From: an archaeon
Lineage (GTDB): Archaea; Nanobdellota; Nanobdellia; SCGC-AAA011-G17; GW2011-AR17
Direction of reading: 5' to 3'
Length of the DNA stretch: 64,000 nucleotides
Assembly (NCBI GenBank): GCA_043825775.1
Contig: JBDRRK010000012.1
Location: 1,237-65,236 of the forward strand
Shown here: positions 3,466 through 44,100 of the stretch, piece after piece
How positions within the stretch are numbered: the stretch's first letter is position 1
Layout of the letters: every line of letters begins with the position of its first letter
Translations under genes and position numbers: made by a program
The notes under the pieces: model-generated
Databases searched by the model: none
What the model was told of the DNA's origin: nothing
What the model saw: only the letters and a program-made list of their open reading frames with translations

Positions 3466-3531
3466 TTTATTTTTTCGGGTTAGAGGGTTTTTAAATATTA
3501 TAGTAATGTAATAGATAGGTTTAAAAATAAT

Positions 3532-22710: not shown

Positions 22711-22768
22711 GTAGTTAGCTATCTGCCTACCAATGATTATGAAATAAAATAATAATTTAAAAATGTTA

Positions 22769-23759: not shown

Positions 23760-26740
23760 ACCATGCTAGGCAGAGTCTTGAAAATCCATGTCAAACTATT
23801 GGTAACTGCACGCTGAATATCTCGCCGAAGCTCGATACTTACACGCCAGTCCCATCAAACCCCTGTTTTGGGGGTGTTCTTGATCTCGTTTTGCGGTGTC
23901 TTTCGTGCTTAGATGCTTTCAGCACTTATGACTTGCTGCGTAGCTGCCCTGCCTGCCTTGTCAGACAACAGGTACACCAGAGGCAACGAACCCCTGTTCC
24001 TCTCGTACTAAGAGATCCTTCCACTCAGATCTTTAACACCTCTAGTAGATATCATACAAACTGTCTCGCAACGTTCTTAACCCAGCTCACGAACCGCTTT
24101 AACCGGTGAACACCCGTACCCTTGGGCGCTTCTGCACGCCCAGGATGCGATGAGCCGACAACGAAGTAGCAAGCCGCGCCGTCGATCTACTCACTCTGTT
24201 CGATATTTTTCGAACAAAAATTTGAGCTCTTAGGCGCGACAACTCAGTTATCCCCAGGATAGCTTTTCTGTCATACTTGGCCCCCATCAAAGAGGACACA
24301 AGGGTTCGCTAGACCAATCTTTCGATGCTGCATTTCTTACTGTTCAAAATACAGTCAGGCAAGCTTTTGCTCTTGCACTCTACTCCGGATTTCTGAACCG
24401 GATGAGCTTACCTTTGGGCCCAATTGATACCTTTTCAACTGGGTGCCGCCCCAGCCAAACTGTCTACCAACTGCTGTCCTTTCCGAAGAAAGTAAGCGAT
24501 GTAAAATGTAAAGGGTGGTGTCTCATTGGTGTCTATTCCTAATCTGGCGATTAGAACATAGCAACTACCACCTACACTGCACAATATATCTCACACCGCA
24601 ACAATAAGCTACAGTAAAGTTCCATGGGGTCTTCGCTTCCCACTAGAGGTCTCTGGACTTCACACCAGAATGTAATGTTCGGGGGCATTTAGCTTGGGAC
24701 AATGGGGAACTCGTTACGCCGTTCATGCAGGTCGTCAATTAAACGACAAGGCATTTCGCTACCTTAAGAGAATTATAGTTATTCCCGCCGTTTACCTGCT
24801 CTTAGCTCCCTTGAAAAGGAGTTTGAAGTACAGGCACTGGGCAGACGTCACGAACTATACACACCATTTCTGGCTAGCAGTTCGTTAGGTTTTTGTTAAA
24901 CAGTCGGTCCCCCCTAGTAATGGTACCCTGTAATCGCACCTATGCAGATACAATCGCAGGGACCCCTTATGCCGAAGGCACGGGGCTATTCTGTCGAATT
25001 CCCTAAGCTAAGTTAAACCCTCAGACCTTGGGCTTCTCACCCTGGACACCAGTGCTGGTTCTAGGTATAGTTACTTAAGATCCTTCCATGTTCCCTTTTC
25101 ATGGACTCCAGATATTGACCAAACAGACTCAAGGTCTGCTCATCTTAGATTTAATCTTCTTCTCACCATTATGGTACTCCAAAGATTTATTCTAGTTGAC
25201 AATCACGATGATGATTGTTGGTCTCCTCTGAAATGTTAGAAACTTGGCTTGCGTTGCCGCACGTACTTAAGTAGTACAGGAATATTAACCTGTTTCCCTT
25301 TCCCGCGAATCGGTTAAGATTGCAGTTAGGACTAACTTACCCTCAGCTGAACTACATTGCTGAGGAACCCTTGCCCTTTCGGTCCTAGAGATTCTCACTC
25401 TAAATAGATCCTACTTTTGCCAGGATTCTCATCTCTACATGGTTCACAATTACTCACGCAATTGCTTTTGCCCGTGCAGAGCGCCTACCTACCCCGCTCC
25501 ACTCTCTTGAGTGGGCAGATATAGTATCGGTAACTGATTTAGCCCCGTCCATTTTCAGGGCACATGACCTTGACAGGTGAGCTGTTACGCTATCTTTAAA
25601 GGATGGCTGCTTCTAAGCCAACCTCCCCGCTGTCTTTGGTGACGAACACCTTTCGCCCTTTAACACTTAACCAGTATTTTGGGACCTTAACTATATTGAG
25701 GGCTGTTCCCCTCTAGCTACACAAGTTTACCCCAGTGCAGCCGTTTCCAGACTTCTACGACGTTAAGGCATTTGGAGTTGGACAAGAAGGTGAAGGATTT
25801 CTCCCCCGGGCCTCCAAATCCGTAGCTCTACCTCCTTAACTATCTCTGTCCAGACTAGACTTAGGCCTATTTCGGTAGGAACCAGCTATTACCGGGCTCG
25901 ATTGGCTTTTCACCCCTAGCCACAGGTTATAAGAACATATGCACATAGCACCTCTTCAGACCTCCACCACTCATACAAGCGGCTTCATCTTACCCAAGGC
26001 TAGATCGCTCGGTTTCGGGTAGTACCCTAGTGACTTATGGCATTTTCATACCACTCTCCTTGTAAACTGCGAGATTTTGGTTTCCCTTTGAATACGCCCT
26101 TAACAGGCTTACTCTTGCCACTAAAATACACTCCCTGGCACGTTATTCGAAACGCACGATACAACTCCTTAAAGCTGTATCATTCTTTCACCATTAGATT
26201 TCAGGCTCTTTTAACTCTCTATCACGAGTTCTTTTCAACGTTCCCTCACGGTACTATTCGCTATCGGACTCAAGACATATTTAGAGTTGGAAGTTGATGT
26301 CTCCCAAATTCAGACACAATAACAAATGTGCCCTACTCAAGATACTCACACTCCTTCTAGAATTCTTTAAGGGGCTATCACCCTCTATGGCATTCCGTTC
26401 CAGAAAACTTCAATTATTCTAGTTAAGGTATAAAAGTGAGTCTTTAACACCACATCTCCCTTACATTTCTGTAAGGGATTCAGTTTGCTCTGTTCCGCTT
26501 TCTCTCGCTGATAATGACGGAATCTCGATTGATTTCTTTTCCTCTAGGTACTGAGACGCTTCAATTCCCTAGGTTCCTCGCCCTCTCGGACTATATGAGA
26601 AGTCTCATTAAGGGATCTCTGGTTCAAAGGCTGCTTGCGCCTATCCAGAGCATTTCGTAGCTTGCCACGCCCTTCATCAGTGTCTTGAACCAAGTCTTTC
26701 ATCTAATGGTTTAGTTGGATTTATTTAGACTCTGCCTATG
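23760..26740 (-). rRNA. 23S ribosomal RNA
   Basis: Minus strand: sarcin-ricin loop (plus-strand 'cctctcgtact' at about 24000); 'GCTGAAAGCATCTAAGC' (plus rc at about 23906-23922); 5' domain 'CUGAUGAAGGGCGUGGCAAGCU' at about 26626-26665. Ends approximate. Confidence 0.85.
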
Positions 26741-27119: not shown

Positions 27120-28591
<1,472 letters not shown>

Positions 28592-29420: not shown

Positions 29421-29495
29421 TGCCCTGGCCGGGATTTGAACCCGGGTCTTCACCTCGAAAGGGTGAAATGATTGACCGTGCTACACCACCAGGGC
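29421..29495 (-). tRNA. tRNA-Glu (TTC)
   Basis: rc = GCCCTGGTGGTGTAGCACGGTCAATCATTTCACCCTTTCGAGGTGAAGACCCGGGTTCAAATCCCGGCCAGGGCA; anticodon loop CTTTCGA. Confidence 0.85.
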
Positions 29496-29578
29496 TTTAG
29501 TTCTTTGGAAATTTATTTTCTTTATAAAGTTTTCTTATTGACATAATGTTTATATATTGATAGGTTCTTGGATAATTA

Positions 29579-30256
29579 ATGGAAAATATTATTGAATTAA
29601 AAGATGTGTGGAAAACTTTTCGAATGGGAGAGGTTGATGTACATGCTCTTAGGGGATTGTCATTACATATTAAAAAAGGAGAGTTTGTTTCTATACAAGG
29701 ACCAAGTGGTTCAGGTAAAAGTACTACTATGTTTTTAGTTGGTTGTTTAGATTTACCTTCAAAAGGTGGAGTTTATTTAGATGGTCAGAATATTGCAACA
29801 TTAGGTGAATCACATTTAGCTCAAATTAGAGGTAGAAAAATTGGTTTTATTTTTCAAAGTTTTAATTTATTAGGGAATATTAGTGCAAAAGATAATGTTG
29901 AGTTGCCCATGACTTTTCAAGGTGTTGATGCAGCAACTAGAAGTAAAAAATCTATTGAGTTGTTAACTAAAGTTGGATTGAGGCATAGGATTACTCACAA
30001 ACCAACTGAATTATCAGGTGGGGAAAGGCAGAGAGTTGCAATTGCAAGAGCTTTAGCAAATGATCCTGAAGTAATCTTAGCTGATGAGCCAACTGGAAAT
30101 TTAGATTCTAAAACTGGAAAAGAAATTATGGATTTGTTAAAGGATTTAAATGTTAGAGAGAAGAGAACAATTATTATGGTTACCCACGATAGAAGCATTG
30201 CTATGGAAGCAAAAAGGCAAATATATTTAAAGGATGGGAGAATTAGCAAAACATAA
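29579..30256 (+). CDS. ABC transporter ATP-binding protein (MacB/LolD-type)
   Basis: Walker A 'GPSGSGKST', signature 'LSGGERQRVAIARAL', Walker B 'ILADEPTGNLD'. Confidence 0.9.
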   Translation: MENIIELKDVWKTFRMGEVDVHALRGLSLHIKKGEFVSIQGPSGSGKSTTMFLVGCLDLPSKGGVYLDGQNIATLGESHLAQIRGRKIGFIFQSFNLLGNISAKDNVELPMTFQGVDAATRSKKSIELLTKVGLRHRITHKPTELSGGERQRVAIARALANDPEVILADEPTGNLDSKTGKEIMDLLKDLNVREKRTIIMVTHDRSIAMEAKRQIYLKDGRISKT

Positions 30257-31485
30257 TGAAAAGAGGCATTATATTTTTGGTTATATTACTATTTTGTTTG
30301 TCTTTAGTAAGTGCAACACAGACAGTAATAACAAAATCAGATGAATATAGAATTGATTTACTTCGTTATGATCCTTCACCAATGCAGCCAGCTGAGACTT
30401 CTGTTGTTTATTTTGAAATTACAAATTTGGGTGATGAAATGGTTGATGATTTAGAAATAAATTTAGTAGAAAGTTATCCTTTTTTATTGGGTGAAGGACA
30501 GAGTGATAAAGTTAATTTAAATTTAGCTGCTGGAGAGAAGGGTTCTTTTTCATTTCCTGTTTTTGTTAACAAAGATGCAGAAGATGGATTTTATAGTTTA
30601 AGTTTAAGTTTTTATTCAGAGAAAAAAGGTATGTATGTTAGTCAATTATTTACAATTTATGTTCAAAGAGTTAATAGAGTTGTTTCTGCAACAAGCGTTT
30701 CTGTAGAGAAATCTGATGTTGAAGAAATACCTGGAGTTTTAGAACCTGGAGAGATTGGACAAGTTTCTTTTTCAGTAAGAAATTCAGCTGATTATACAAT
30801 GAAAGATGTTTCTGTTAGACTTGTTTTAAATGATTCATCACCATTTGCACCAATTGGAAGCACTGCACAAAAAGAAATTAGTGAAATAGCTCCTGGTAAA
30901 TTAAAAGATGTTTCTTTTGATGTTATTGCTCTACCAGATGCTTTGTCTGGAGTTTACAAAGTAGATTTAGAAATTGTATATTATAATGAGTTGGGAACAA
31001 AGTATACAAGAACTGATATGATTGGTTTAGTAATTTCTGGCGATCCTAAATTTCATGTAGAAATTAAAGATAATTCAATTGCAAATGTTGGTGGGCAGGG
31101 TGAAGTTACTTTGAATATTGTTAATACTGGTTTAACAAAAGTTAAATTTTTAACTGTTGAATTAAATGAAGGAGATTATAATATTTTATCTGAAAATAAT
31201 GTTTATTTAGGAGATATAGATTCTGATGATGATCAGAGTGTTGATTTTATTTTAGATTTGACTTCTAGTGATAAAATTATAGAGTTACCCTTAACTCTTA
31301 CTTTTTTGGATGCTAACAATCAAGAGTATGTTGTTGAACAAAGTGCTGAATTGCAAATTTATGATTTAGAAAAAAGTAATGGTAAAATTACTTGGATTAT
31401 TTTGATTGTTTTAATACTTGTAGTAGGAATTATTGTTTATAGTAAGTATAGGAAAAGGTTCAAGGGTTTCTTTAAGAAAAAATGA
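30256..31485 (+). CDS. Surface-exposed protein with N-terminal signal peptide and C-terminal TM anchor (ABC-transporter-associated)
   Basis: Signal-like 'IIFLVILLFCLSLVSA'; C-terminal 'ITWIILIVLILVVGIIVYSKYRKR'; sits inside the MacB-like operon with overlapping stops and starts. Confidence 0.5.
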   Translation: MKRGIIFLVILLFCLSLVSATQTVITKSDEYRIDLLRYDPSPMQPAETSVVYFEITNLGDEMVDDLEINLVESYPFLLGEGQSDKVNLNLAAGEKGSFSFPVFVNKDAEDGFYSLSLSFYSEKKGMYVSQLFTIYVQRVNRVVSATSVSVEKSDVEEIPGVLEPGEIGQVSFSVRNSADYTMKDVSVRLVLNDSSPFAPIGSTAQKEISEIAPGKLKDVSFDVIALPDALSGVYKVDLEIVYYNELGTKYTRTDMIGLVISGDPKFHVEIKDNSIANVGGQGEVTLNIVNTGLTKVKFLTVELNEGDYNILSENNVYLGDIDSDDDQSVDFILDLTSSDKIIELPLTLTFLDANNQEYVVEQSAELQIYDLEKSNGKITWIILIVLILVVGIIVYSKYRKRFKGFFKKK

Positions 31486-32702
31486 TTAAAGACTATTTTG
31501 CATTTGCTTTCAGGAGCATTGTAACAAGGAAGTTAAGAAGTTGGTTAACTATAATTGGAATTTTTATTGGTATTGCTACGGTTGTTGCTTTGATTGCAGT
31601 TGGTCAAGGAATGGAAGCTGCTGTTACAGAACAGTTTGAAAAATTAGGAACTGATAAAATTGTTATTTCTGCTGGTGGAGATGCTGCTGGTTCTACTTTT
31701 GGAATGGGTTTGGCTGCTAAACCTATAACTTATGATGATATAGATGTTGTCAATGATGTAAGGGGTGTTGATGTTGCTGCTGGAATGGTTACAAGAATTG
31801 CAGCTGTAAAATTTGGTGATGAAACTAAAAATACATGGATTAATGGTTATCCTGTAGATGAAACTTCTGAGGTTATTGAAGATATACAGTCATATAAAGT
31901 TATTGAGGGAAGAGATTTAGAAGATGGTGATACTTATGAGATGGTTATTGGAAATGATTTTGCTTATGATTTTTTTGAGGATGAAGTTTCTGTTGGTGAT
32001 AAAATAGAGATTGAAGGTAAGAAATTTAGGGTTATTGGTATCTTGGATACGATTGGAAATAGACAGGATGATACAGCTGCTTCTATTCCAATTGATACAG
32101 CTGCTGAAATATTTGGTACAAGGGATGAAATTTATGGAATAATGGTTAAAGTTGATGCTGGTGAAGATCCTCCTGTTATTGCTGAGAGAATTAAAGAAGA
32201 TTTAAGAGATTTTAGAGACGAAGAAGAAGGGGAAGAAAGTTTTTCTGTTCAAACTTTTCAGCAGATTTTGGAACAGGTAGGAGTTGTGTTGAATATTATT
32301 ACTGCTGTGTTGTTAGGGATTGCTGGAATTTCATTGTTAGTTGGTGGAATAGGTATTATGAATACTATGTATACTTCTGTACTTGAGAGAACAAAAGAGA
32401 TTGGAATTATGAAAAGTATTGGTGCTAAGAATTCTGATGTTATGTTAATATTTGTTTTAGAATCTGGGATGTATGGTTTGGTTGGAGGGGGAGTTGGTAT
32501 TATCTTTGGTGCTGGTTTATCCTTGATTGTTGCACAGGTTGCTGGAGCTGCATTAGGCATTGATTATTTTAGGGCTCAGATTTCTATATGGTTGATTTTA
32601 GGTGCTTTAGCTTTTAGTTTTATTGTTGGAATTGCTTCTGGTGTATTCCCTGCTAGACAGGCTTCAAAGATGCAGCCAGTTGATGCATTGAGATATGAGT
32701 AA
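31482..32702 (+). CDS. ABC transporter permease, FtsX/MacB-like
   Basis: N-terminal TM, large extracytoplasmic domain, C-terminal 3 TM with an FtsX-type 'MYTSVLERTKEIGIMKSIGA' segment. Confidence 0.8.
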   Translation: MIKDYFAFAFRSIVTRKLRSWLTIIGIFIGIATVVALIAVGQGMEAAVTEQFEKLGTDKIVISAGGDAAGSTFGMGLAAKPITYDDIDVVNDVRGVDVAAGMVTRIAAVKFGDETKNTWINGYPVDETSEVIEDIQSYKVIEGRDLEDGDTYEMVIGNDFAYDFFEDEVSVGDKIEIEGKKFRVIGILDTIGNRQDDTAASIPIDTAAEIFGTRDEIYGIMVKVDAGEDPPVIAERIKEDLRDFRDEEEGEESFSVQTFQQILEQVGVVLNIITAVLLGIAGISLLVGGIGIMNTMYTSVLERTKEIGIMKSIGAKNSDVMLIFVLESGMYGLVGGGVGIIFGAGLSLIVAQVAGAALGIDYFRAQISIWLILGALAFSFIVGIASGVFPARQASKMQPVDALRYE

Positions 32703-32987: not shown

Positions 32988-34220
32988 ATGGCAGAAGATG
33001 ATATCTATAAAAGTAAGCAAAAATATGAAACTGTTGTTAATGGTTTTGATAGCTTAATAGAGAAACCAACTGGTAAAAGTAAATATTTTTGTAAGAATAA
33101 AAAGAATATAAAATATTTTAAGGGGTTGGTTAAATATTTTGATTTGAAAGATTTAAGTTATATTAGAAGACGTAAGGTTTTGTACATTATGAGATTAATT
33201 ACTTTTGTGATTAAAAAAGATTTGAAAGATTGTGAAAGAGAAGATGTTAATGAATTGGTTGCTTTTGGTCATGAAAGGTTTAAGACAATAACAAGTAAAA
33301 AAGATTTTATCAAGGATGTAAAAGTAATTTGGAGAGTTCTTTTTCCTGAAAAAGATAATAAGGGAAGAATAGATGAAACCTTAACTCCTTATGCAGTAAG
33401 GCATTTGTCTAATAAAATAGATAAAAGTAAAGAGAAATTAAGGAATGATAGGATTTCTTTAGAAGAGTTTGAAGCGATTGTTAAATTCTATGATAATGAT
33501 CCTAAAATGCAGGCTTATTTGACTCTTGCTTTTGAAAGTTTGGGTAGACCTCAGGAAATTCTTTATACTAAAATAAAAGATTATGAATTTTATGATAACT
33601 ATGCGAGGATTTGGATATCTGAACATGGGAAAGAAGGATGTGGTTTTTTACAATGTATTGATAGTCTGCCTTATGTTTTGAATTGGTATAGGAATCATCC
33701 TTTGAAAGGTGATAAAGATGCATTCTTTTTTATTAGTGAGAACAATAGGGCTAAGTATGGGCAGTTGAAAAACCATAATATCAATCAAAGATTAAAACAT
33801 GCTTGTAAGGTTTTAGGTATTGATAAGAATATAACTTGTTATTCTTTGAAAAGAAATGGTATTACTCATAGAAGAATAAGAGGAGATTCTGATACAGAGA
33901 TACAGCATGCTGCCAGATGGACTTCTACAAGGCAGTTGAAGATATATGATATGAGTACTCAAGAAGATGCCTTGAAAATTGCTTTGAAGAAAAGAGGGTT
34001 TGTAGAGAAAGAGTCTAATGTAAATACTGAAAGTAAAAAGTGTGTGTTTTGTGGTCAAGATAATGGGTTTTCAGAAGAGTTTTGCTCTGTTTGTAAAAGA
34101 CCTTTAGATAGGGATAAGTTAAGGGAACAGGCACAGATGCACGAAAGGTTGATGCAGAACAATATTGTCCAGAAATTAGATAAAATGGAGCAGATGTTTG
34201 GGAAGATGAAAAAGATGTAA
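32988..34220 (+). CDS. Tyrosine-type site-specific integrase (with C-terminal zinc ribbon)
   Basis: Box I-like 'ESLGRPQEI'; C-terminal catalytic region '…ITHRR…QHAARWTSTRQLKIYD' with H/W/Y spacing typical of Xer/integrase family; 'CVFCGQ…CSVCKRP' zinc ribbon. Confidence 0.7.
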   Translation: MAEDDIYKSKQKYETVVNGFDSLIEKPTGKSKYFCKNKKNIKYFKGLVKYFDLKDLSYIRRRKVLYIMRLITFVIKKDLKDCEREDVNELVAFGHERFKTITSKKDFIKDVKVIWRVLFPEKDNKGRIDETLTPYAVRHLSNKIDKSKEKLRNDRISLEEFEAIVKFYDNDPKMQAYLTLAFESLGRPQEILYTKIKDYEFYDNYARIWISEHGKEGCGFLQCIDSLPYVLNWYRNHPLKGDKDAFFFISENNRAKYGQLKNHNINQRLKHACKVLGIDKNITCYSLKRNGITHRRIRGDSDTEIQHAARWTSTRQLKIYDMSTQEDALKIALKKRGFVEKESNVNTESKKCVFCGQDNGFSEEFCSVCKRPLDRDKLREQAQMHERLMQNNIVQKLDKMEQMFGKMKKM

Positions 34221-34424: not shown

Positions 34425-35784
34425 ATTAACCTATGATGAATTAGTATTTCCAAATTATGTAAATAGTAATACTGCAGTTCGATTGAGAGCTAATATTGAT
34501 GGAAGATTACAAACATTAGAGTTAAGTGTTTGTGATATGGCTTATGCAATTGAACTTGCTGGTTTGAATAGTTTATGGTTATCTGATACTGGAAGAGGTA
34601 AAACTCAGTTAATGTCTGATATTGCTTGGCATCATTTTGGTGGTGACCAAGAAGAAGGTGATGCTAACTGGGCTGATGGAAGACCAAGTTTTGATATTAC
34701 TGATTTGTTTGAAAGAACTCAAGTTGATTTAGAATCAGGAAAGTTTGATAGTGATACTGCTCGTCAAGTTAAGGCAAACAGAATTAGAAGAATGTTTTTT
34801 GGAGTTGATGAAATTAATCGTGCTCCTAATCCAAGACAGAACGAATTTTTTGATTTAGCTGATGGTAAATATACTTTTAATGGGAGGAGACTGGATTTAG
34901 GTAAAGAAGGTTATGCTATTTTTATGGCTACTGCCAACTTAAACAAAATGAATGGTGATTTCTCTGGAACTTTTGAATTAGATAGAGCTCTTTTGAACAG
35001 AGCCCATGTAACTATAGATTTAGATCATCCTGATTTCAGACCTACTGTTGAGGATGAAATGCTTATTGAAGAGGGGAAAGCTAATCCAAAAGTAGATATT
35101 GCTCCTGCTCAAAATTTAAGTGGTAAAATCTTAACAGCAAATAAAGAAATAATGGCTACAGCTAGACAACTGAATCCTTATTTTACTGCTTTTAGATTTT
35201 TGATAGGAAGAGGATTAGATTATTGTGCTACAGATAAATATGATGAAAAAGGATCAAATTTTCCAATGCTCTGTGCTGAATGTGATGACACAGGTAAAGA
35301 TCTTTGTTCTAGGGTTAAAGGTTCTTCAGAAAGAACCTTACCTGCAGTAAAGAGTTTAGCTTATGCTTTGTCATATATTGCAAAATTGAAAACTGGAAAA
35401 GAAGTTGAAATTGATCCATTAGATGCTACTTTGCAGGCATTTAGATTTACTACATATCATGGTAATTTAAATGAGCTTATGGCTGAAGACCAATATGCAA
35501 TGAGAAAACAGATTATGATGGATGAAACAGTTGAAAAGTTATCTGGTGTTGTTGATGTTTTACGTCCTTATTTGCCAATTATGATAGATGGTGGGGAACC
35601 AGTTATTGTTAGTTACCAATTTAAAGGTGAACAATTTGATGGTCCAAAAACAGATAAAACAATTAGTACATTAAGAAAAGCAGGGATTTCATATCAGGAA
35701 AAGGGACTCAAAGCTGAATTAAAAGAACAAGGTCTTGGTACTGACTGGATTGACCCTTATGTTAAATCTATGAGGAAAAAATGA
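34417..35784 (+). CDS. MoxR-family AAA+ ATPase
   Basis: Walker A-like 'SDTGRGKTQL'; Walker B 'FFGVDEINRAPNPRQNEFFDLADG'; sensor-1 region 'FMATANLNKMNGDFSGTFELDRALLNRA'; these match MoxR 'DEINRAxPKTQSALLE…ATQNP…GTYPLPEAQLDRF'. Confidence 0.75.
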   Translation: MSELTYDELVFPNYVNSNTAVRLRANIDGRLQTLELSVCDMAYAIELAGLNSLWLSDTGRGKTQLMSDIAWHHFGGDQEEGDANWADGRPSFDITDLFERTQVDLESGKFDSDTARQVKANRIRRMFFGVDEINRAPNPRQNEFFDLADGKYTFNGRRLDLGKEGYAIFMATANLNKMNGDFSGTFELDRALLNRAHVTIDLDHPDFRPTVEDEMLIEEGKANPKVDIAPAQNLSGKILTANKEIMATARQLNPYFTAFRFLIGRGLDYCATDKYDEKGSNFPMLCAECDDTGKDLCSRVKGSSERTLPAVKSLAYALSYIAKLKTGKEVEIDPLDATLQAFRFTTYHGNLNELMAEDQYAMRKQIMMDETVEKLSGVVDVLRPYLPIMIDGGEPVIVSYQFKGEQFDGPKTDKTISTLRKAGISYQEKGLKAELKEQGLGTDWIDPYVKSMRKK

Positions 35785-36551
35785 CTAACACACTAAAACC
35801 ACTGAACTTAGGAAGAAGAATACTAACAGAAGAGGAAGTTTTAGAGCAGTTAGCGGGTTATCAACCAACTAATCCTAGACAAGAACTTGAACCAACTCCT
35901 CAACCACAACCAACACCGGAGCCAGAACAAGAAGCAGATATAATTCCTCAAGACTATATACTATTAGAAGGAACAAATAACTATCAAGATACATTTATTT
36001 CAACTACAAGAACACACCAAGGAAATAATTGGAATAAAACCCAAGAGCTTTTACATGCACGAGATCTCTATATGCCTACTATTAAGCAATTTGTTGATTT
36101 TCTTAAATTACTGAGAAGTGGAACAGCTTTTAATGGAAATGGAGATAACATTCCATCTTCACAACTGGATGCAATATACAAGGACATAACTGAAGTGAAA
36201 GACCCATGGAGAGCAGAATGGTTGGATGCTAAATTTGAAGGTAACCTTATTCATTATCATCATAGAACCAGGCAGGGAAGTTTACAATCTGTAGTTTCAG
36301 AAGGACTAGTTCCATATTTAAGACAGGACAAGACCCCCGGTATTGATTTAGAATACTGGATAAACAATTCCACTTCACAAGGTTTACCTTTGGATAATAC
36401 TCTAAATGGGAATTTATATTATTGGCATCCAAGAGATGGTGCTGTCGCGAGGTTCAGTGCGAATTCGGATAGGGCTTACCTTATTTGTAGCAGGTACCCT
36501 TGGAGCTCGAATTCCTCTCTCGGGGTACGTCCTTGCGCGCGAAAAAATTAA
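35781..36551 (+). CDS. DGR target protein 1 (C-terminal variable C-type-lectin/FGE-like fold ending '…SLGVRPCARKN')
   Basis: The 3' end contains VR1, which is homologous to the TR with adenine-specific mismatches; paralog of 38375-39166; start overlaps the MoxR stop. Confidence 0.8.
   Translation: MTNTLKPLNLGRRILTEEEVLEQLAGYQPTNPRQELEPTPQPQPTPEPEQEADIIPQDYILLEGTNNYQDTFISTTRTHQGNNWNKTQELLHARDLYMPTIKQFVDFLKLLRSGTAFNGNGDNIPSSQLDAIYKDITEVKDPWRAEWLDAKFEGNLIHYHHRTRQGSLQSVVSEGLVPYLRQDKTPGIDLEYWINNSTSQGLPLDNTLNGNLYYWHPRDGAVARFSANSDRAYLICSRYPWSSNSSLGVRPCARKN
36442..36522 (+). repeat. DGR variable repeat VR1
   Basis: 81 nt aligned to the TR (39419-39519); 8 mismatches, all at TR adenines. Confidence 0.8.
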
Positions 36552-36569
36552 CGATCAATACAAGAAAAA

Positions 36570-38378
36570 ATGGATACAAACCAAGTAACAGAAGAAATCA
36601 AGGCAAGAGAAACTGCAAGATTTAACTATAAAGGAAAGGTTTTAGTTAGAGAGTTATCTAGAGAACCTTGTTTTTCTGGCAGTATTGATATGCTTACTAC
36701 TGCAAAAATAGAGGTTGGTTATAATCCAGATTATCCAGAAGAAGCTCAACATTTAGAAGGAATTGTTACTGAACCTTTTGAAAGAGCAATGACTTCAGTT
36801 TTAAGACATGAGCTTAATCATAAAGGTGGAGGAGAATTTCAAGGATGCCCTAGAAATATTGATTTACATGCTGAAAATGTTCTTGAACCTGCAGCAGAAG
36901 TATTACAAAGTTTAGGTTTACCAAATGTCCCTGTTACTGAAAATCAAACTCTTTATGCTTACATGGCTAACTTAATAGAAGATGTTTTTGACAATGCAGA
37001 ATTAGGCAATAATTCTGACCATGTTGGTATGTTTCTAGCTTACAAAGATGATGCTCAACATCTACCTGATGATATGGAAGGGAAACTCTCACCTCTATTT
37101 GATGCTTTTGTTCAATTGCAACAAAAATTATATGGTGGGAGAGCAAGCAGAAAATTATTAGCTGAACATTATTCTGATGATAATAGAGTTCAAACTGCAA
37201 TTGATAATTTTATGCAAAGGTCTGGTTTGACTGATATGACGAGAGAAGTCACAACTAGAAGAAGAAAAGAGAGAGTTGAAATATTTGATAGAAAAGAAGC
37301 AGTTCAATATTTGATGGATGAAAACAATTGGCCAGAATTGTCAAAAATCTTAACAGAAGAATTTGCTGAATTGATTGATAAAAATAAATTACAACAACCA
37401 GATTATGTTAAAGGAACTTTCATACCTCTAAAAGGTGAGGCTGATGGATTTTCTGATGAAATGGATGATAAAGAGACTAAAATGAGATTAGTTTGGAAAA
37501 AATATGTTGAAGGAAAGGGAAAAGAATCAAGTCCTGCTTTCCAACCTCCTGCTTATTTAGAAAGTTTTGAAGCTTTGGATTTAGTCTATCAAAGATTAGC
37601 AAGAAATTTAGAAATCAAAACAAAAGCTTCCACAAGAACTGCAAGTATGCCTGTAATGCACTATGGAAAGAGAAAGTTTGACCCAAGAAGAGATAAATTA
37701 TCAAAAGCCAGAATTGGTTTTGGCAGAAAAGGAAAATTAGAGTTAAGTGTAGGAAGATTTCATGAGGATTATCCAGTTGAATATACTGAAAGAATGAGAA
37801 GTCTGCCAGAAATAAAGTTTGTTATGATGGATACCTCTGGAAGTATGTCTCATCCTGTAGAAGGAAGTGATACTGGTAAAGTCATGAATCCTTGGGCAGA
37901 TGAAAGAAGACAATGGGGAGATAATAGCAGATATCATCATGCGTTAGTTGCTTGGTATGGTTTGTTAGGATTATTAAGAAAACAAGGAACATTAAAACAT
38001 AAATCAGTCAAATTAGCTAATTATTCAAGTTCTACTCAAACAGCTTCTGATTTAAGAGATGCTAAAAAATTGGCTTTAACACCTCAGTTCGGAGGTACAG
38101 AGTTAGATTTAGACACTATTGATGATATGTTTGGAAGAGACCAGTTGATATTCTCTTTATCAGATGGAGATGTTGATAACTGGAATCGAATTAAAGATGA
38201 ATATATCCAAAGAGCCAAACAAAATCATTATTTTCATTTGCAAATTGGTGGAGAAACAGCAATGTCACGAGATTTAGAATCTGCAGGTTTGGTAGTTAAA
38301 TATGATGATGGTAAGAATTTAGGTAAAATGGTTATTGATTTAACAAGACCATATATTACTAGGATGGAGAAAAAATGA
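36570..38378 (+). CDS. VWA-domain protein with MIDAS motif (MoxR partner)
   Basis: C-terminal half: 'KFVMMDTSGSMS' (DxSxS MIDAS) and downstream 'IFSLSDGDVDNW'; follows the MoxR gene pattern. Confidence 0.75.
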   Translation: MDTNQVTEEIKARETARFNYKGKVLVRELSREPCFSGSIDMLTTAKIEVGYNPDYPEEAQHLEGIVTEPFERAMTSVLRHELNHKGGGEFQGCPRNIDLHAENVLEPAAEVLQSLGLPNVPVTENQTLYAYMANLIEDVFDNAELGNNSDHVGMFLAYKDDAQHLPDDMEGKLSPLFDAFVQLQQKLYGGRASRKLLAEHYSDDNRVQTAIDNFMQRSGLTDMTREVTTRRRKERVEIFDRKEAVQYLMDENNWPELSKILTEEFAELIDKNKLQQPDYVKGTFIPLKGEADGFSDEMDDKETKMRLVWKKYVEGKGKESSPAFQPPAYLESFEALDLVYQRLARNLEIKTKASTRTASMPVMHYGKRKFDPRRDKLSKARIGFGRKGKLELSVGRFHEDYPVEYTERMRSLPEIKFVMMDTSGSMSHPVEGSDTGKVMNPWADERRQWGDNSRYHHALVAWYGLLGLLRKQGTLKHKSVKLANYSSSTQTASDLRDAKKLALTPQFGGTELDLDTIDDMFGRDQLIFSLSDGDVDNWNRIKDEYIQRAKQNHYFHLQIGGETAMSRDLESAGLVVKYDDGKNLGKMVIDLTRPYITRMEKK

Positions 38379-39166
38379 CTAACACACTAAAACCCCTGAA
38401 CTTAGGAAGAAGAATACTAACAGAAGAGGAAGTTTTAGAGCAGTTAGCAGGTTATCAACCAACTAATCCTAGACAAGAACCTGAACCAACACCTCAACCA
38501 CAACCAACACGGGAACCAGAACAAGAAGCAGATATAATTCCTCAAGATTATATTCTATTAGAATCTACTGGTAATTATCCAGATACTCACATTTCAACTA
38601 CAAGGATACACCAAGGAAATAATTGGTTTCAAGCACATGAAGAGCTACACAAAGAAGGATTGTATATGCCTACATTAAGACAGTTTGTAGATTTCTTAAA
38701 GTTATTAAAAGGAGGAAAGGCATTTAATGGCCAAGGAAATAAAATTCCAAAAAACCAATTGGAACAAATACTGAAAGAAATAATTGAAGTAAGAGCTCCT
38801 GGTAGAGCAGAGTGGCTTGATGCTGATTTTAAGGTAAAGAGTGATATTTTACATATAAATTACAATCATAGAACTGTTGGTGGACAATTACAACCAAATC
38901 AGTCAGAAGTTTTACAACCTTATTTGGATCAAAATAAAACTCCGGGAATTGGTTTAGAGTATTGGTTAAACAATGCAACATCAAGACATGGTCTGCCACC
39001 AGCAAATACTTCAGATGGAAGTTTATATTACTGGGCTCCAATGTCTGACAATAATTCTGTCGCGAGGTTCGATGCGTATTCGGGTAGGGCTAGCCTTAGT
39101 TGTGACGGGAACCCTAGGGACTCGAATTCCTCTCTCGGGGTACGTCCTTGCGCGCGAAAAAATTAA
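38375..39166 (+). CDS. DGR target protein 2 (paralog of target 1)
   Basis: Same N-terminal 60 aa and same C-terminal '…SNSSLGVRPCARKN' as target 1; contains VR2; start overlaps the VWA stop. Confidence 0.8.
   Translation: MTNTLKPLNLGRRILTEEEVLEQLAGYQPTNPRQEPEPTPQPQPTREPEQEADIIPQDYILLESTGNYPDTHISTTRIHQGNNWFQAHEELHKEGLYMPTLRQFVDFLKLLKGGKAFNGQGNKIPKNQLEQILKEIIEVRAPGRAEWLDADFKVKSDILHINYNHRTVGGQLQPNQSEVLQPYLDQNKTPGIGLEYWLNNATSRHGLPPANTSDGSLYYWAPMSDNNSVARFDAYSGRASLSCDGNPRDSNSSLGVRPCARKN
39057..39138 (+). repeat. DGR variable repeat VR2
   Basis: Aligned to the TR; 9 mismatches, all at TR adenines. Confidence 0.8.
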
Positions 39167-39418
39167 CTATCAATACAAGACATAAAAATATAAAAACTAT
39201 GATTTTCTTAATTCCTTGTCTTAGAGACATTATCTTGAGTATTTCCACATCCTAAGGAAATGCAATGAAGGATAATCGCAAGGGCTACATGTAGATTCAT
39301 TAGTGCATTTTCAAAATGTCATAAAATTCAATAATGATAGATAGTAATAATGACAAACCTTGGGAAAGTTTAGAGTGAAACCTAAAATTATGGTGCTTTT
39401 ACAATGAGTTTGCTAAAT

Positions 39419-39519
39419 CTGTCGCGAGGTTCAATGCGAATTCGGATAGGGCTAACCTTAATTGTAACAGGAACCCTAGGAACTCGAAATCTTTTTTAAG
39501 ACGAGATTTCCTCTCTCGG
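39419..39519 (+). repeat. DGR template repeat (TR) with embedded hairpin (39486-39510), immediately upstream of the RT
   Basis: A-rich copy 'ctgtcgcgaggttcaatgcgaattcggatagggctaaccttaattgtaacaggaaccctaggaactcgaaat…cctctctcgg'. It translates to N-A-N-S-D-R-A-N-L-N-C-N-R-N-P-R-N-S (AAC/AAT codons). It lies in non-coding DNA 24 nt upstream of the RT start. Confidence 0.8.
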
Positions 39520-39542
39520 AATAACCTTTGTTATCTAAGACA

Positions 39543-40669
39543 ATGAAAACTTGCAAAAACTTATATTCAAAACTATATTCAATAGACAACCTAAAATTAG
39601 CATTCACAAAAGCTAGAAAAGGAAAAACACTTAGACTAGAGGTAATCAAATTTGAAAAGAATCTTAATAGGGAATTACCTCAACTAAAGAATGAATTAAA
39701 GTTTTTAACTTATAAACCTAAACCTCTAGTAAACTTTATTATTAGGGATCCTAAAATCAGAAAAATAAGCAAATCTCATTTTAGAGATAGAGTTGTCCAT
39801 CATGCACTTTGCAACCTAATAACTCCCATCTTTGAAAAAACATTTATCTTGGATTCTTATGCAAATCAAATAGATAAAGGAACATTAGCTGCTATTCAAA
39901 GATTTGATTATTTCAAGAGAAAAGTAACCAAAAACAATACAAAAAATGCTTATGTTTTCAAGGCAGACATAAGAAAATATTTTGAATCGATAAATCATGA
40001 GATTCTAACAAACACTATAAAAAAGAAAATAAAAGATAGAAGAATAATCTGGTTAATACAAATCATCCTCAACAATTCAACTGGGGGGGGGGCGAACAGA
40101 AAAAGGGCAACATAAATCAAAGATTTCTTTCCTCATATATTCAGAAGGGAATGCCTTTGGGAAACTTAACATCCCAATTCTTTGCAAACCTTTATCTCAA
40201 TGAATTGGATTATTTTGTAAAACGCAAACTAAAAATAAAATATTACATTCGTTATGTTGATGATTTCATAATCTTTCACAATTCAAAAGAAAAACTTGAA
40301 TTTTACAAGGAAGAGATAGGTTCTTTTCTAACGAGTAAATTAGATATAGAATTACATCCAGATAAATCAAGAATATTTCCTATTCACCGAGGAACAAACT
40401 TTCTTGGATTTAAAATATTCCCTTATCATAGGATTATAAAAAACCAAAATCTAAGGAGATTTAAAGGTAAATTAAAACAACTTGAAAAACAATACAGACA
40501 AGGGGGTATAAGTTATGATGAACTATATGATTCCTTGGAAGGCTGGCTTGCTTATGCTAAAAATGCTAATACTTACAAATTGAGAAAGGAGATTTTAGAA
40601 CAAGTAGAAACTCTGTTTTCGAAAGAGGTTTCAAGTAAAGAGATAAATAGATATCAAAAATATAACTAA
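39543..40669 (+). CDS. Diversity-generating retroelement reverse transcriptase (frameshifted in a G10 tract; two ORF fragments 39528-40115 and 40151-40669)
   Basis: RT motif 2 'FKADIRKYFESINHE'; DGR-specific motif 4 'GMPLGNLTSQFFANLYLNELD' (SQ replacing QG); motif 5 'YVDDFIIF'. A homopolymer at 40083-40092 interrupts the frame; an 11-G version reads through. Confidence 0.85.
40083..40092 (+). repeat. G10 homopolymer causing the RT frameshift
   Basis: 'aactggggggggggcgaac'; frame 1 stops 20 nt downstream; the +2 frame is open across the tract and into ORF2. Confidence 0.7.
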
Positions 40670-41064: not shown

Positions 41065-42384
41065 ATGGCTAAAAATAATGATTCTTTGGATGTTACTGCA
41101 GTTATAATAATTCTTGTTGGGATAATAAGTGTTTGTTATATTTGGTGGGAAAGGAATGGACAAGAAATAGAAGCGTCATTTCTCGCAATTCCATGGGTAA
41201 AGATAGGCATAATTATCTTACTTACTCTTATTTCAATATTTATTGTCTATAAAACAATAAAGTACATAGAAAAGAGAAAAAAAGAAAAACAAAGAACAGA
41301 AGAAAGAATAGAAAACGAAAAAAATACCCTTCTTTCCCTACTAAATACAGATTTTCAAGGAAATTCTAGAGAAATAGAAGAACAATACAAAAAAATAAAT
41401 AAAAGAATCAAAGAAATAAATAAAAACATTAGAAATCAATACCAAAAAGAGATAAAATCATTACATAAGAAAACAAAGAATTTAATCCAAACTATAGAAC
41501 AACAAGAATATATAAGATATGAAAGACAATTAGAACAAGAAAGAGAAGAAGAACTAAAAAGAAAAAGACATAAAAATAAAGTAAAAGAATTATTTGAATA
41601 CAAGAAAAAATTAAATTCAATAAGGGCACTACCCTTAAACAAAAAATACTCTTCTGATGTTATTAATGAAGCTACAAAATTAATGAAATACTATGAACAT
41701 AAACAAGGACAACTAAATGAAACAAGAGAAAATGCAATAGAATATTACAAAACACATCCATTGGACACACAACCAGAGATTAGGGAAAATGAAGAAAAAT
41801 TATACAAAGAAGTAAGAGACCAAATAAAACAAGGGAAAATAGAACTAAAGAAAAAACCAAAAATAGAATATCAAGGTAAAAAACTGGAAAAGGATTTTTA
41901 CCTGTCAAAGGATTTAAATGAAGAGACAAAAGCAAAAGCTAGAGCTCAGGGATTTGTACAAGTTGATGGAATAAAACTTGATGGAAAGATACAGGGTGGT
42001 GGTTATTATATAAGAAAGGAAAATCCAAGAGAGAGTAAAAAACACTTCTACTTAAAACACTTATTTGCTAAACTACATGAAAATACACAATTAGAATATC
42101 AGGTTAAAGGCAAAAGGGTAGATGTAGTATTATTGATAGAAGATTACAAGTTAGGGATAGAAATAGAAACTGGAGCCAATAGAGAAAAACAATTAATGGA
42201 GAAGATTTCTTGGTTAAACAAGAATTTTGATCAATGGATTTTTGTCTGTCCAAAAGAGTTGCATGGGAAATATAATAAATTAGTAAATCCTAAGAAAAGC
42301 TTTTGTTTGGGGATTAAGGAAGCAAAGGAATTCATCTTGGAGTTGACTTTACCTGTTGAAGATCTGCAAAGAACAGGTAAATAG
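41065..42384 (+). CDS. Membrane-anchored coiled-coil protein with C-terminal PD-(D/E)xK-like module (hypothetical)
   Basis: 2 N-terminal TM helices, long K/E-rich coiled coil, C-terminal 'GKRVDVVLLIEDYKLGIEIETG'. Confidence 0.4.
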   Translation: MAKNNDSLDVTAVIIILVGIISVCYIWWERNGQEIEASFLAIPWVKIGIIILLTLISIFIVYKTIKYIEKRKKEKQRTEERIENEKNTLLSLLNTDFQGNSREIEEQYKKINKRIKEINKNIRNQYQKEIKSLHKKTKNLIQTIEQQEYIRYERQLEQEREEELKRKRHKNKVKELFEYKKKLNSIRALPLNKKYSSDVINEATKLMKYYEHKQGQLNETRENAIEYYKTHPLDTQPEIRENEEKLYKEVRDQIKQGKIELKKKPKIEYQGKKLEKDFYLSKDLNEETKAKARAQGFVQVDGIKLDGKIQGGGYYIRKENPRESKKHFYLKHLFAKLHENTQLEYQVKGKRVDVVLLIEDYKLGIEIETGANREKQLMEKISWLNKNFDQWIFVCPKELHGKYNKLVNPKKSFCLGIKEAKEFILELTLPVEDLQRTGK

Positions 42385-42479: not shown

Positions 42480-43532
42480 TTAGTATTTATCCAGAATCTT
42501 ATTAAGGAATTTTATAAATTCTTTAGTATCTAAAAAGTAATTAGGATAAGCTTTCTTCAAATCAGCAGTAGTATCAGCACCAACAAGAACAACATCATAT
42601 TCTTTTTTACCATAAATTCTTTTTTCAGCTTTAGCATAATCGTCAAGTGCTTTCTCTTCTTGTCTTTTTGAATAAGAAGTAATGACTAACTTTTCTTGAA
42701 TTGTATCTAATTCAAGTAAGAAAAAATGTACATTTTTTTTACTCTTTAAATCATCAAAAAACTTAATTGATTTAGCCCAACCTACCATCTTAGTTCTAAC
42801 ATTTAATTTTTTTTCTTTTTCCTTGATCAATAAATAAAGTTCTTTTTCATTTGAGGGAGTATTAGGAACTTGAGGACAATTTTCTAATCTTGCAAATGCT
42901 GAACTAACCAATTTAAAGAATTCTTTCCATTCTTCTTCTCCTTCATTTGATTTAATCGCTTGACCAGTAAAAAAATCAACTGTTTCAACTGCTGTAGCCC
43001 AAATATGTTGTAATCTAGATCTAATTTGTACTTCAATTAATAATCCATTATAGATTTTTCTTTTTTCTTTATCACTATTGTATCTATAAATTAAATGTAT
43101 GCTTCTATACCCATCTTCCTTTGGATAGGTAATATAATCCTTTTCATTTACTTTTTTATGTTTTAAGGTTCCATTTGAATAGTAGTCTTGATAGAGCTTC
43201 TTTGCCAATTCAACATCTGTCATAACAGCCCTACATCCTGCAATATCTTGCATTTGAGTTAATTTCATTGTAGCTTTTTTTCCATCATATTTCCTATGCA
43301 ATTTTTTTAAGATAGAAGATACTCTCTTTAGTCTCTGTGCAGATAATGAACTTGGATCTATCTTTTCAGAAGATCTCTTTAACCTTTGCTTAAAAACATG
43401 CATAGGGTAGCTATGGGCCGCTCTCCAATTACTTAAAACCCCTAAAGCTTTGGAACTTTCCTTTTTTGTTAAAATAACTCCTGCAGCATCAGTTTCAGAT
43501 TTGGAGTATTTTTTAGGGTTTATTTGTTTCAT
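42480..43532 (-). CDS. RelA/SpoT-homolog (RSH) synthetase-domain protein with C-terminal extension (toxSAS/CapRel-like)
   Basis: Synthetase motifs 'QRLKRVSSILKKL' (Syn1), 'DIAGCRAVM' (Syn2), 'GYRSIHLIY' (Syn3), 'EVQIRSRLQHIWATAVE' (Syn4), followed by about 140 aa of non-RSH sequence. Confidence 0.7.
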   Translation of the reverse strand: MKQINPKKYSKSETDAAGVILTKKESSKALGVLSNWRAAHSYPMHVFKQRLKRSSEKIDPSSLSAQRLKRVSSILKKLHRKYDGKKATMKLTQMQDIAGCRAVMTDVELAKKLYQDYYSNGTLKHKKVNEKDYITYPKEDGYRSIHLIYRYNSDKEKRKIYNGLLIEVQIRSRLQHIWATAVETVDFFTGQAIKSNEGEEEWKEFFKLVSSAFARLENCPQVPNTPSNEKELYLLIKEKEKKLNVRTKMVGWAKSIKFFDDLKSKKNVHFFLLELDTIQEKLVITSYSKRQEEKALDDYAKAEKRIYGKKEYDVVLVGADTTADLKKAYPNYFLDTKEFIKFLNKILDKY

Positions 43533-43758
43533 TAGGCTTTAATAAACCATTATTATATATAAATCTTTCCTAATGCGCAACAAAATATTATAATAAATGT
43601 CATTTTGCGCTATTTTAAAAGGCTTAAATTATCCTTTAAAATGAAAAATAAGGCTATTTTAACCTTTTTTTAAAAATACCATTTTTTATGTGTCATTTTG
43701 CGCAGTATTAAAAATAAAAATTTATCTATTGCGCTATTTAAAAAGTACCAATTCTTAA

Positions 43759-44100
43759 GTGGCAAAGCACTGCCCAAAGCACTGCCTGAAGCAGTGCTTA
43801 AAGCACAGCCCAAATGTTAAATGTTCCCAAATCTTATACTATTATATGAACCAGATACAAAGATCGGGGGAAAAGACAATTCAGGGAAGATTGTCCTATA
43901 GTGAAAGTTCTCAAGGTTGGTCAATATTAAGACTGAAAAAGGAAGTTCTAAATGAATTCAAGACACTTAAGGAAAAGAGAAATCCATCTGGTTACAAGCT
44001 TGTTTTGTTTGACAATTATGAACAGGCAGAATCTCATTTGAAGAAGATAAAAGAGACTTGTATGGAACCCCCTGTTTTTCTGGTATTTGAGAGATTGTAA
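43759..44100 (+). CDS. Hypothetical protein (true start probably at internal 'MNQIQ', about 43846)
   Basis: The N-terminal 30 codons translate a 12-bp tandem DNA repeat and are probably non-coding. Confidence 0.3.
   Translation: MAKHCPKHCLKQCLKHSPNVKCSQILYYYMNQIQRSGEKTIQGRLSYSESSQGWSILRLKKEVLNEFKTLKEKRNPSGYKLVLFDNYEQAESHLKKIKETCMEPPVFLVFERL
43764..43811 (+). repeat. 4 x 12-bp tandem repeat (aaagcactgccc / aaagcactgcct / gaagcagtgctt / aaagcacagccc); iteron/operator-like
   Basis: Direct inspection. Further repeats 'tgtcattttgcgc' (43598, 43691) and 'ttgcgctattt(t)aaaa' (43605, 43730) lie in the same divergent intergenic region. Confidence 0.5.

Follow-up and report, generated by a model that had tools for sequence, protein, structure and literature searches.

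A CapRel-type fused toxin-antitoxin gene in an archaeal chromosome and the repeated upstream boxes of its relatives in DPANN archaea and bacteria

Identification of the window gene

The gene at positions 42480 to 43532 (minus strand) of a 64,000-nucleotide stretch of archaeal DNA (contig JBDRRK010000012.1; the whole stretch is called the window below) is, judged from its sequence, a complete CapRel-type fused toxin-antitoxin gene in an archaeal chromosome, with its functional residues intact. The encoded protein, which joins toxin and antitoxin in a single polypeptide, is likely to serve as an abortive-infection antiviral sensor of an archaeon of the Diapherotrites-Parvarchaeota-Aenigmarchaeota-Nanoarchaeota-Nanohaloarchaeota (DPANN) type. 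The boxes repeated upstream of this gene and its close relatives probably form an operator, possibly bound by CapRel itself. CapRel is among the best-understood cases in which a prokaryotic immune protein senses a viral protein directly, and has been described only in bacteria and phages.

The gene is an uninterrupted open reading frame (ORF) filling exactly these coordinates. An earlier reading of the letters alone (the sequence-only reading) had recognized four synthetase motifs in it, and all four were located, at residues 67-78 (RLKRVSSILKKL), 96-104 (DIAGCRAVM), 141-149 (GYRSIHLIY) and 167-179 (EVQIRSRLQHIWA). The match to the RelA/SpoT homologue (RSH) family on which that reading depended is significant, with Pfam RelA_SpoT (PF04607) covering residues 66-180 at 61.5 bits, well above the cut-off of 27 (E = 1.2e-16). 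The C-terminal extension, which had been put at roughly 140 amino acids, is real; about 160 amino acids follow the Pfam domain and are homologous to the antitoxin/sensor region of CapRel. In a sequence search against the structures of CapRelSJ46 (PDB 7ZTB, 9ERV), a protein of a Salmonella prophage, residues 8-348 of the window protein aligned to residues 14-371 of the chain (E = 5.8e-46), and a PHROGs profile search matched phrog_4773 (E = 6e-93). NCBIfam RelQ/RelA-SpoT models, on the other hand, gave partial, sub-threshold matches only (GTPPhKinYjbM, 58 bits against a cut-off of 320, E = 1e-15). The identical protein at NCBI, from a 200,748-bp contig, is labelled "MAG: RelA/SpoT domain-containing protein [archaeon]".

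Domain organization, conserved residues and predicted fold

The gene and the parts of its product, with the evidence for each part, are as follows.

42480..43532, minus strand: CapRel-type fused toxin-antitoxin gene, 350-amino-acid ORF with ATG at 43532 and stop codon at 42480-42482
42963..43532, minus strand: toxSYNTH (pyrophosphokinase) domain, residues ~1-190 (Pfam RelA_SpoT, CapRelSJ46 map, AlphaFold2 [AF2])
42768..42935, minus strand: anchor/linker helices, residues ~200-255 (H200-216, H229-243, H245-255; AF2 and CapRelSJ46 alignment)
42579..42767, minus strand: pseudo-zinc-finger domain (pZFD; antitoxin and predicted virus sensor), residues ~256-318 (CapRelSJ46 alignment, AF2)
42537..42548, minus strand: YXXY neutralization motif, Y329-P-N-Y332, aligned to Y352/Y355 of CapRelSJ46

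Pairwise alignment of the window protein with CapRelSJ46 (36.5% identity over 334 positions) placed R79, R116 and Y155 of the latter at R67, R101 and Y142, and A77, V338, L339, A351, Y352 and Y355 at A65, V315, L316, A328, Y329 and Y332. All of these experimentally important residues are kept, and the only difference among the functional residues listed is A341, which is G318 in the window protein. In CapRelSJ46, the adenine of ATP is coordinated by R79 and R116, and Y155 serves as the G-loop tyrosine of catalysis. In the closed state the ATP site is plugged by Y352-x-x-Y355 of the pZFD, at an interface scaffolded by A77, V338, L339, A341 and A351, and mutation of Y352/Y355 makes the protein constitutively toxic (PMC9712102). 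The full-length homology, together with the retained catalytic and YXXY residues, bears out the sequence-only reading, which had assigned the gene to the toxic small alarmone synthetases (toxSAS) with the fused CapRel architecture.

Among 58 members of the clade to which the window protein belongs, the toxSYNTH residues R67, D96, G99, R101, Y142 (G-loop), H146, E167, Q169 and R171 are invariant, including the DxxGxR aspartate (D96) and the Syn4 glutamate (E167) on which the earlier reading had staked its assignment. The same is true of V315, L316, Y329 and Y332, while A328 is kept in 56 of the 58 and A65 is likewise nearly invariant. The listed toxSYNTH residues are also kept in the bacterial outgroup, with one exception (R67K). 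The pZFD (residues 256-312) is the least conserved region, its identity to the window protein being 62% among clade members and 24% among bacterial CapRels; that the pZFD is the most variable part has also been reported for bacterial CapRels (PMC9712102).

The AF2 model of the window protein (66 homologues; mean predicted local distance difference test score 89.3, predicted template modelling [TM] score 0.88) comprises a synthetase core, three linker helices that join the enzyme to the sensor domain and align with helices alpha7-alpha9 of CapRelSJ46 (as described in PMC9712102), and a pZFD made of a three-stranded sheet with one connecting helix (E268-276, E281-288, H289-306, E312-318). A short helix (residues 330-333), situated between two C-terminal helices, falls exactly on the YPNY motif. 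The best Foldseek matches to the model were 7ztb and 9erv_A, labelled "Salmonella tRNA pyrophosphokinase CapRel" and "CapRel bound to Bas11 Gp54" (364 columns, E~1e-21, TM score 0.66-0.68, root-mean-square deviation ~10 A), whereas RelQ and RelP matched the N-terminal half only (E~1e-7). The high deviation at a decent TM score fits the same domains shifted relative to each other, the crystal forms being open and the model possibly closed. The window protein is thus homologous to CapRelSJ46, shares its fold and conserves every residue known to matter.

Comparison with characterized systems

The window protein resembles CapRelSJ46 in having a toxSYNTH domain, anchor helices, a pseudo-zinc-finger, a YXXY switch and a C-terminal helix, and in needing no partner gene. 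It differs in its host, which is an archaeon and not an enterobacterium; in its location, which is chromosomal or cassette-borne and not on a recognizable prophage; in its predicted expression from a TATA-type archaeal promoter as a leaderless mRNA; in its length (350 versus 373 amino acids, with a more compact pZFD); and in the direct-repeat box array carried by its clade, which is absent at bacterial and phage CapRel loci. Nor does the window protein conserve the CapRelSJ46 sensor residues L280 and L307, in place of which it has V and K.

The split toxSAS pairs (FaRel2/ATfaRel2, PhRel/ATphRel and the actinobacterial CapRel/ATcapRel) have a homologous toxSYNTH enzyme, a YXXY element of the pZFD type that blocks the ATP-donor site, and the CCA end of tRNA as target (PMC11782079; bioRxiv 10.1101/575399). 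These pairs are bicistronic with a separate antitoxin, whereas toxin and antitoxin are fused in the window protein and no small neighboring ORF is conserved. The small alarmone synthetases RelQ and RelP have the synthetase core fold and motifs in common with the window protein; they lack the C-terminal antitoxin/sensor region and match much more weakly, and they produce (p)ppGpp and do not act as toxic switches. Finally, PDC-S33, a single-gene candidate among the hidden Markov models of PADLOC, matches the window protein over its full length (E = 6e-114), so that automated defence annotation would already flag it. PDC-S33 is an unvalidated label without a described mechanism, and the homology to CapRel supplies one.

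Proposed mechanism and alternative functions

By analogy with CapRelSJ46, the N-terminal toxSYNTH domain would move pyrophosphate from ATP to tRNA at its 3' CCA end, which would block aminoacylation and stop translation. In the resting state the C-terminal pZFD would fold back, with Y329-x-x-Y332 inserted between R67 and R101 so as to block the ATP-donor site, and this lock would be released when a viral protein, by analogy one of the capsid or another that is abundant in the virion, binds to the variable pZFD. We infer from the bacterial relatives that tRNA is the substrate, that a viral protein acts as trigger and that the gene has a defence role in archaea. As the tRNA CCA end and the ATP donor are both universal, such a mechanism should work unchanged in archaea, and the variability of the pZFD would be consistent with a sensor role.

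The choice of substrate rests on a rule from characterized systems, in which tRNA-targeting toxSAS are neutralized at the ATP-donor site by a pZFD with YXXY, and makers of (pp)pApp are neutralized at the acceptor site by Tis1-like domains or proteins (PMC11782079). By this rule the window protein would fall with the tRNA class. Killing through (pp)pApp synthesis and ATP depletion, as in FaRel/Tas1-like toxSAS and with tRNA left unmodified, would involve the same enzyme superfamily, ATP donor and G-loop tyrosine, and substrate choice cannot be read with certainty from sequence; we nevertheless consider this outcome improbable. The (pp)pApp makers characterized have separate neutralizers and any pZFD in them has lost YXXY (PMC11782079), whereas in the window protein the pZFD and YXXY are fused to the enzyme and invariant, with no partner gene, and the closest characterized relative, CapRelSJ46, modifies tRNA (PMC9712102). 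It is very improbable indeed that the protein is a housekeeping synthetase of the RelQ/RelP kind that supplies the archaeon with (p)ppGpp for a stringent-type response. Its RelA/SpoT synthetase domain, the partial match to the YjbM/RelQ equivalog and the significant fold matches to RelQ and RelP would agree with this, but the NCBIfam score lies far below the family cut-off, matches to CapRel are far stronger (160 versus ~45 bits) and span the whole protein including the antitoxin domain, and the YXXY autoinhibition motif is invariant. Moreover, the distribution of the gene is patchy and cassette-like, there is no hydrolase partner, and (p)ppGpp signalling is generally absent from archaea (PMC3153485). 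A compact RelQ/RelP synthetase of ~200-230 amino acids was ruled out by the score of 58 against 320 bits together with the additional, CapRel-homologous C-terminal region.

We also considered a selfish addiction-type cassette or domesticated remnant with no antiviral role in archaea, whose spread would reflect horizontal mobility. The gene and its promoter move as a unit between phyla and domains, an integrase/DGR block (DGR, diversity-generating retroelement) adjoins the gene, and the sensor domain is fairly conserved, all of which would fit. This is nonetheless an unlikely account, as the neighbors of these genes include other defence-type cassettes (Fic, Schlafen/AlbA_2) and the bacterial homologues are proven defence proteins; in addition, a fused toxin-antitoxin, being one polypeptide with one half-life, cannot be a classical addiction module, and catalytic and autoinhibitory residues that are strictly kept in 58 members speak for selection on a switchable function.

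Some observations weigh against an antiviral sensor. For a defence gene the clade shows unusually little divergence (60-80% identity between phyla, and 62% within the sensor domain), so that diversification of the sensor is below what a Red-Queen sensor might show. Viral contigs carry many bacterial-type CapRels (33-44% identity to the window protein), and the window clade was found on a viral contig at only 1 of 80 loci, so that the prophage association known in bacteria was not reproduced. That one locus (L083 in our numbering, from an IMG/VR giant-virus metagenome-assembled genome bin) holds a DPANN-type CapRel with the boxes of the clade; it is probably a misbinned cellular contig with a doubtful taxon label.

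Host and distribution of the clade

The window contains an archaeal ribosomal RNA operon (16S at 27121-28591, tRNA-Ala, 23S at 23779-26725) and an archaeal RNase P RNA (22420-22731), and its G+C content is ~30% outside the rRNA operon. These RNA genes indicate that the host is archaeal and that the gene lies in archaeal chromosomal DNA, in agreement with the archaeal carrier proposed from the sequence alone.

Relatives with E ≤ 1e-5 numbered 5,823 in a word-indexed search. Of their clusters, the best 120 were 66-100% identical to the window protein (66-82% when its own sequence is excluded), and their labels included both archaea (Nanoarchaeota, Woesearchaeota, Aenigmarchaeota, Nanohaloarchaea) and bacteria (Kuenenbacteria, Dojkabacteria, Patescibacteria). 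Among GTDB species representatives, at least 57 loci, mostly of DPANN archaea, carry copies that are 52-80% identical, and beyond these loci identity falls to 37-48% in ordinary bacteria. In a neighbor-joining tree, 58 sequences formed one clade with short internal branches and interleaved phylum labels. Of the seven clade loci labelled as bacterial, three of low G+C content were confirmed as such by their flanking genes: a trigger factor gene adjoins the CapRel gene in L016, a Pol I-type polymerase gene lies near it in L014, and UvrB and MutL genes flank it in L024. A single clade with 67-76% identity thus spans both domains. The label Gammaproteobacteria given to L016 and L017 is doubtful at a G+C content of 29-30%; L016 is bacterial by its trigger factor and probably belongs to a lineage like the candidate phyla radiation (CPR).

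RSH surveys list CapRel in bacteria and phages only and describe RSHs as rare in archaea (PMC3153485; 10.1101/575399), and a 2026 survey of 7,747 archaeal genomes reports DPANN as enriched in compact single-gene systems (AbiE, SoFic, PDCs) and mentions neither CapRel nor PDC-S33. Our literature search found no paper joining CapRel with DPANN lineages or archaea, and none mentioning PDC-S33. The large DPANN/CPR group of CapRels is previously undescribed, although its sequences are public under generic annotations. The expectation that an archaeal example would be unusual holds for the searchable literature and fails for the sequence databases, where copies 52-81% identical occur in at least 57 species of GTDB and in no fewer than 120 protein clusters. 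What is new is the archaeal and cross-domain spread and the private, operator-type box arrays; the CapRel kind itself was already known. DPANN and CPR organisms are ultrasmall symbionts whose immunity is poorly known and which seemingly favor compact single-gene systems, and the clade offers a practical entry point for finding the triggers of archaeal viruses.

Promoter and upstream boxes

Upstream of the window gene, a TATA box and four direct copies of a GC-rich box, the latter within 230 nt, were located (positions relative to the ATG).

43554..43563, minus strand: archaeal TATA box (TTTATATATA), -31 to -22
43574..43580, minus strand: proximal box P1 (TTGCGCA), core at -46, directly upstream of the B recognition element/TATA
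43598..43610, minus strand: box P2 (GCGCAAAATGACA), at -78, 32 nt upstream of P1
43691..43703, minus strand: distal box D2 (GCGCAAAATGACA), at -171, from the repeat search
43722..43734, minus strand: distal box D1 (GCGCAATAGATAA), at -202, 31 nt upstream of D2

The position of the TATA box predicts a leaderless or near-leaderless mRNA. The boxes, of type CCGCGCAA, have the clade consensus ~AACC-GCGCA-A, often lengthened to GCGCAAnTTGACA; the longer form GCGCANNNNGACA has 2 matches in the window, both at CapRel boxes, compared to 0.04 expected. Two or more forward GCGCA[AT] boxes occur within 300 nt upstream of the gene at 45 of 49 main-clade loci, and three or more at 36 of 49. The density of GCGCA[AT] in these upstream regions (9.9 per kb) contrasts with 0.14 per kb in 1.2 Mb of flanking sequence (both strands), and no other box array was found in that flanking sequence or in the window. 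In the main clade the boxes prefer offsets of about -46, -78, -100 and -130, with spacings of 31-33 nt occurring 52 times, and a box lies at about -43 to -50 in 36 clade loci. The upstream region is not a regular tandem array, as Tandem Repeats Finder reported none and autocorrelation peaked only at 31-34 nt and 53 nt.

The boxes are kept where the core promoter changes. Of the 48 archaeal clade loci, 40 have a TATA box at -27 to -31 (37 of them at -29 to -31), as do none of the 7 bacterial loci, and in the archaeal loci of the main clade a box stands immediately upstream of TATA. Five of the seven bacterial loci have instead a sigma70-like promoter whose -35 hexamer is the TTGAYA half (3' half) of a box. 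In a divergent subclade (L053-L058), TGCATGC(A) boxes (TGCATGCA) replace the GCGCA boxes at all six loci, again with the proximal box just upstream of TATA. Upstream of bacterial and phage CapRel genes, repeats were not enriched (15 of 99 loci compared to 7 of 99 controls), and 2 of these 15 belong to the DPANN clade. In the clade loci, no conserved 3' element, terminator or box was found downstream of the stop codon.

Three loci labelled Aenigmatarchaeota, Iainarchaeum and Nanohaloarchaea (L006, L007 and L009) are ~88% identical in DNA, and this similarity is limited to the ORF with 180-206 nt of upstream and no more than 40 nt of downstream sequence. By this comparison of sequences, the gene is one that travels as a cassette of ~1.3 kb, with 2-5 direct boxes bracketing its promoter. 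Between the distal and the proximal pair of boxes, in 43600-43660 of the window and in the equivalent spacers of the clade, many loci also have the short elements AAAATAGCC and TTTAAGCC in common; elements of these two types stand 31 nt apart in the window (-124 and -93) and are possibly boxes that have decayed, or sites of another kind.

Recognition of the boxes

The box pattern suggests self-regulation. As the boxes follow a single gene, survive a change of transcription machinery and switch with the protein subclade, binding by the encoded protein is the most economical explanation. We tentatively propose that DPANN/CPR CapRel is a self-regulating immune cassette in which CapRel may bind CCGCGCAA (TGCATGCA in the sister subclade), that it may cross domains by re-tooling only the core promoter, and that other cassettes, e.g. 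of Fic genes with TGTAGACA, may share this design; we rate this proposal as less likely than not.

It is nearly an even chance that CapRel does not bind the GCGCA boxes, and that they serve instead as sites for a trans-acting factor of host or virus, or for recombination in the exchange of cassettes. The 5' limit of the DNA similarity between phyla coincides with the distal boxes, CapRel contains no DNA-binding domain recognized by Pfam, and no report of CapRel autoregulation was found in the literature search. Moreover, a scan of viral and metagenome contigs for box pairs, in which most matches were high-GC chance occurrences, found six low-GC contigs with CapRel directly downstream and also box arrays without CapRel at three loci (L262, L202 and L253), so that the boxes are not strictly private to CapRel, which counts against recognition by CapRel itself. 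In L262, two near-identical GCGCA arrays of ~245 nt (3255-3500 and 5044-5290) flank a gene with Schlafen-AlbA_2, HATPase_c_4 and winged helix-turn-helix domains, with no CapRel, which looks like a cassette replacement or an insertion between duplicated arrays. In L202, a GCGCA box pair lies upstream of a Fic gene that has boxes of its own nearer to it, and L253 has an orphan GCGCA array.

Other features of the arrays speak against binding by an outside factor or recombination at the boxes: they are kept across the boundary between archaea and bacteria while the core promoter is re-tooled, their sequence changes with the protein subclade, there is none at the 3' end of the cassette, and no others were found in the window or in the flanking sequence. 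Fic cassettes with a different private box on the same scaffold point the same way. The Fic protein of L202 belongs to a large Nano-/Pacearchaeota clade (67-84% identity), and of seven independent relatives sampled (among loci L301-L312) none has GCGCA boxes, while six, as well as L202, have two or three GTAGA[CA]A boxes (TGTAGACA). Within the 60 nt upstream of the Fic genes these lie at -50, -39 and -20, bracketing a TATA box at -29/-30; the exceptions are L301, with two boxes at shifted offsets, and L309, with one exact match. The density of Fic-type boxes is 22.9 per kb compared to 0.42 per kb, and no CapRel locus has two or more of them. As the seven Fic relatives carry their own box and no GCGCA, we rejected the possibility that the boxes are a shared module of many defence genes, and we read the arrays without CapRel as scars left where cassettes replaced one another at sites used in common. 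Two further loci have arrangements that fit such replacement. In L049, the CapRel stop codon is followed after 3 nt by the start of a truncated Schlafen-type gene (9050-9571; residues 271-452, with 57% identity to the protein of L262), where one cassette seems to have overwritten the 5' part of another, and in L002 a Fic homologue is convergent to CapRel. The pattern so read, a private box for every single-gene cassette set on a shared leaderless promoter scaffold, favors recognition by a self-encoded protein.

If binding by CapRel were true, transcriptional autoregulation like that of type II systems would be added to a fused toxin-antitoxin, and a private box on a leaderless TATA scaffold would be a rule for other single-gene defence cassettes of ultrasmall symbionts. 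The box arrays in any case offer a test of possible autoregulation in fused toxin-antitoxins, and of how the regulation of a defence gene is kept across domains with different transcription machineries.

Genomic neighborhood of the window gene

The sequence-only reading had placed the gene on a mobile element. A block with an integrase and a DGR does adjoin it, but no att sites or virion genes were found, and this part of the claim is only partly supported. Two features of the region are the following.

32988-34220: tyrosine integrase, directly after the ABC-transporter operon, 3.5 kb from tRNA-Glu
29421-32702: ABC-transporter operon (ATPase, CARDB protein, FtsX permease; start also given as 29579)

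The 9.8-kb block between the CapRel gene and the ABC operon contains the integrase, two ORFans, the DGR and a 439-amino-acid ORF, and the other flank of the CapRel gene holds ORFans. A direct-repeat search of 28.5-50.5 kb revealed no att-like repeats, with short AT-rich chance matches besides the DGR repeats and the CapRel boxes, and PHROGs and Pfam scans of the neighbors found no virion or plasmid genes and recognized only the integrase and the reverse transcriptase (RT). These scans gave no support for identity as a provirus or plasmid. PADLOC found RT fragments among the neighbors and a weak LeoBC-like match on the 439-amino-acid ORF (E = 3e-5). The woesearchaeotal locus L004 has a CapRel with 80% identity and, likewise convergent and 1.4 kb away from the stop codon of this CapRel, the same ABC operon, with ferredoxin and radical-SAM genes in between and no integrase or DGR; the integrase/DGR block is therefore not an obligatory carrier.

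All ORFs of at least 60 amino acids within 6 kb of CapRel were clustered for 58 loci, and no neighbor gene family occurred in more than 5 of the 58, so that there is no conserved partner gene, and a cognate antitoxin or partner gene was rejected as a candidate. The absence of an adjacent small antitoxin-like ORF, as read from the sequence alone, agrees with this; both immediate neighbors of the window gene face otherwise, and neither is conserved in 57 related loci. The upstream neighbor is an 84-amino-acid ORF (43846-44100) divergent from CapRel, and a 12-nt tandem repeat (CAAAGCACTGCC, 4.3 copies, 43763-43814) lies between it and the CapRel boxes. The downstream, convergent neighbor is the 439-amino-acid ORF (41065-42384), with an N-terminal membrane segment, a long, Lys/Glu-rich, coiled-coil-like middle part and a globular C-terminus; it matches no Pfam family.

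Co-occurrence with DGR elements, which the sequence-only reading had suggested as a check, was not borne out among the 57 related loci: an RT lies near CapRel in one (L038) and target-like genes in two (L002 and L008), and a systematic linkage was rejected with DGR parts near CapRel in only 3 of the 57. The DGR of the window itself (35781-40669) is genuine. Its two paralogous target genes (35781-36551 and 38375-39166) have variable repeats at their 3' ends (36442-36570 and 39057-39185), and the template repeat, which starts at ~39419, departs from the two variable repeats at template adenines only. An RNA of the Rfam family RT-16 (39233-39421) is placed just upstream of this template repeat and of the RT gene. 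The RT gene is split into two ORFs (39528-40115 and 40151-40669) by a frameshift in a run of ten G (40083-40092), while its homologue in L038 is a single frame; this split could be an assembly error or slippage, or could represent a phase-variable or inactivated RT.

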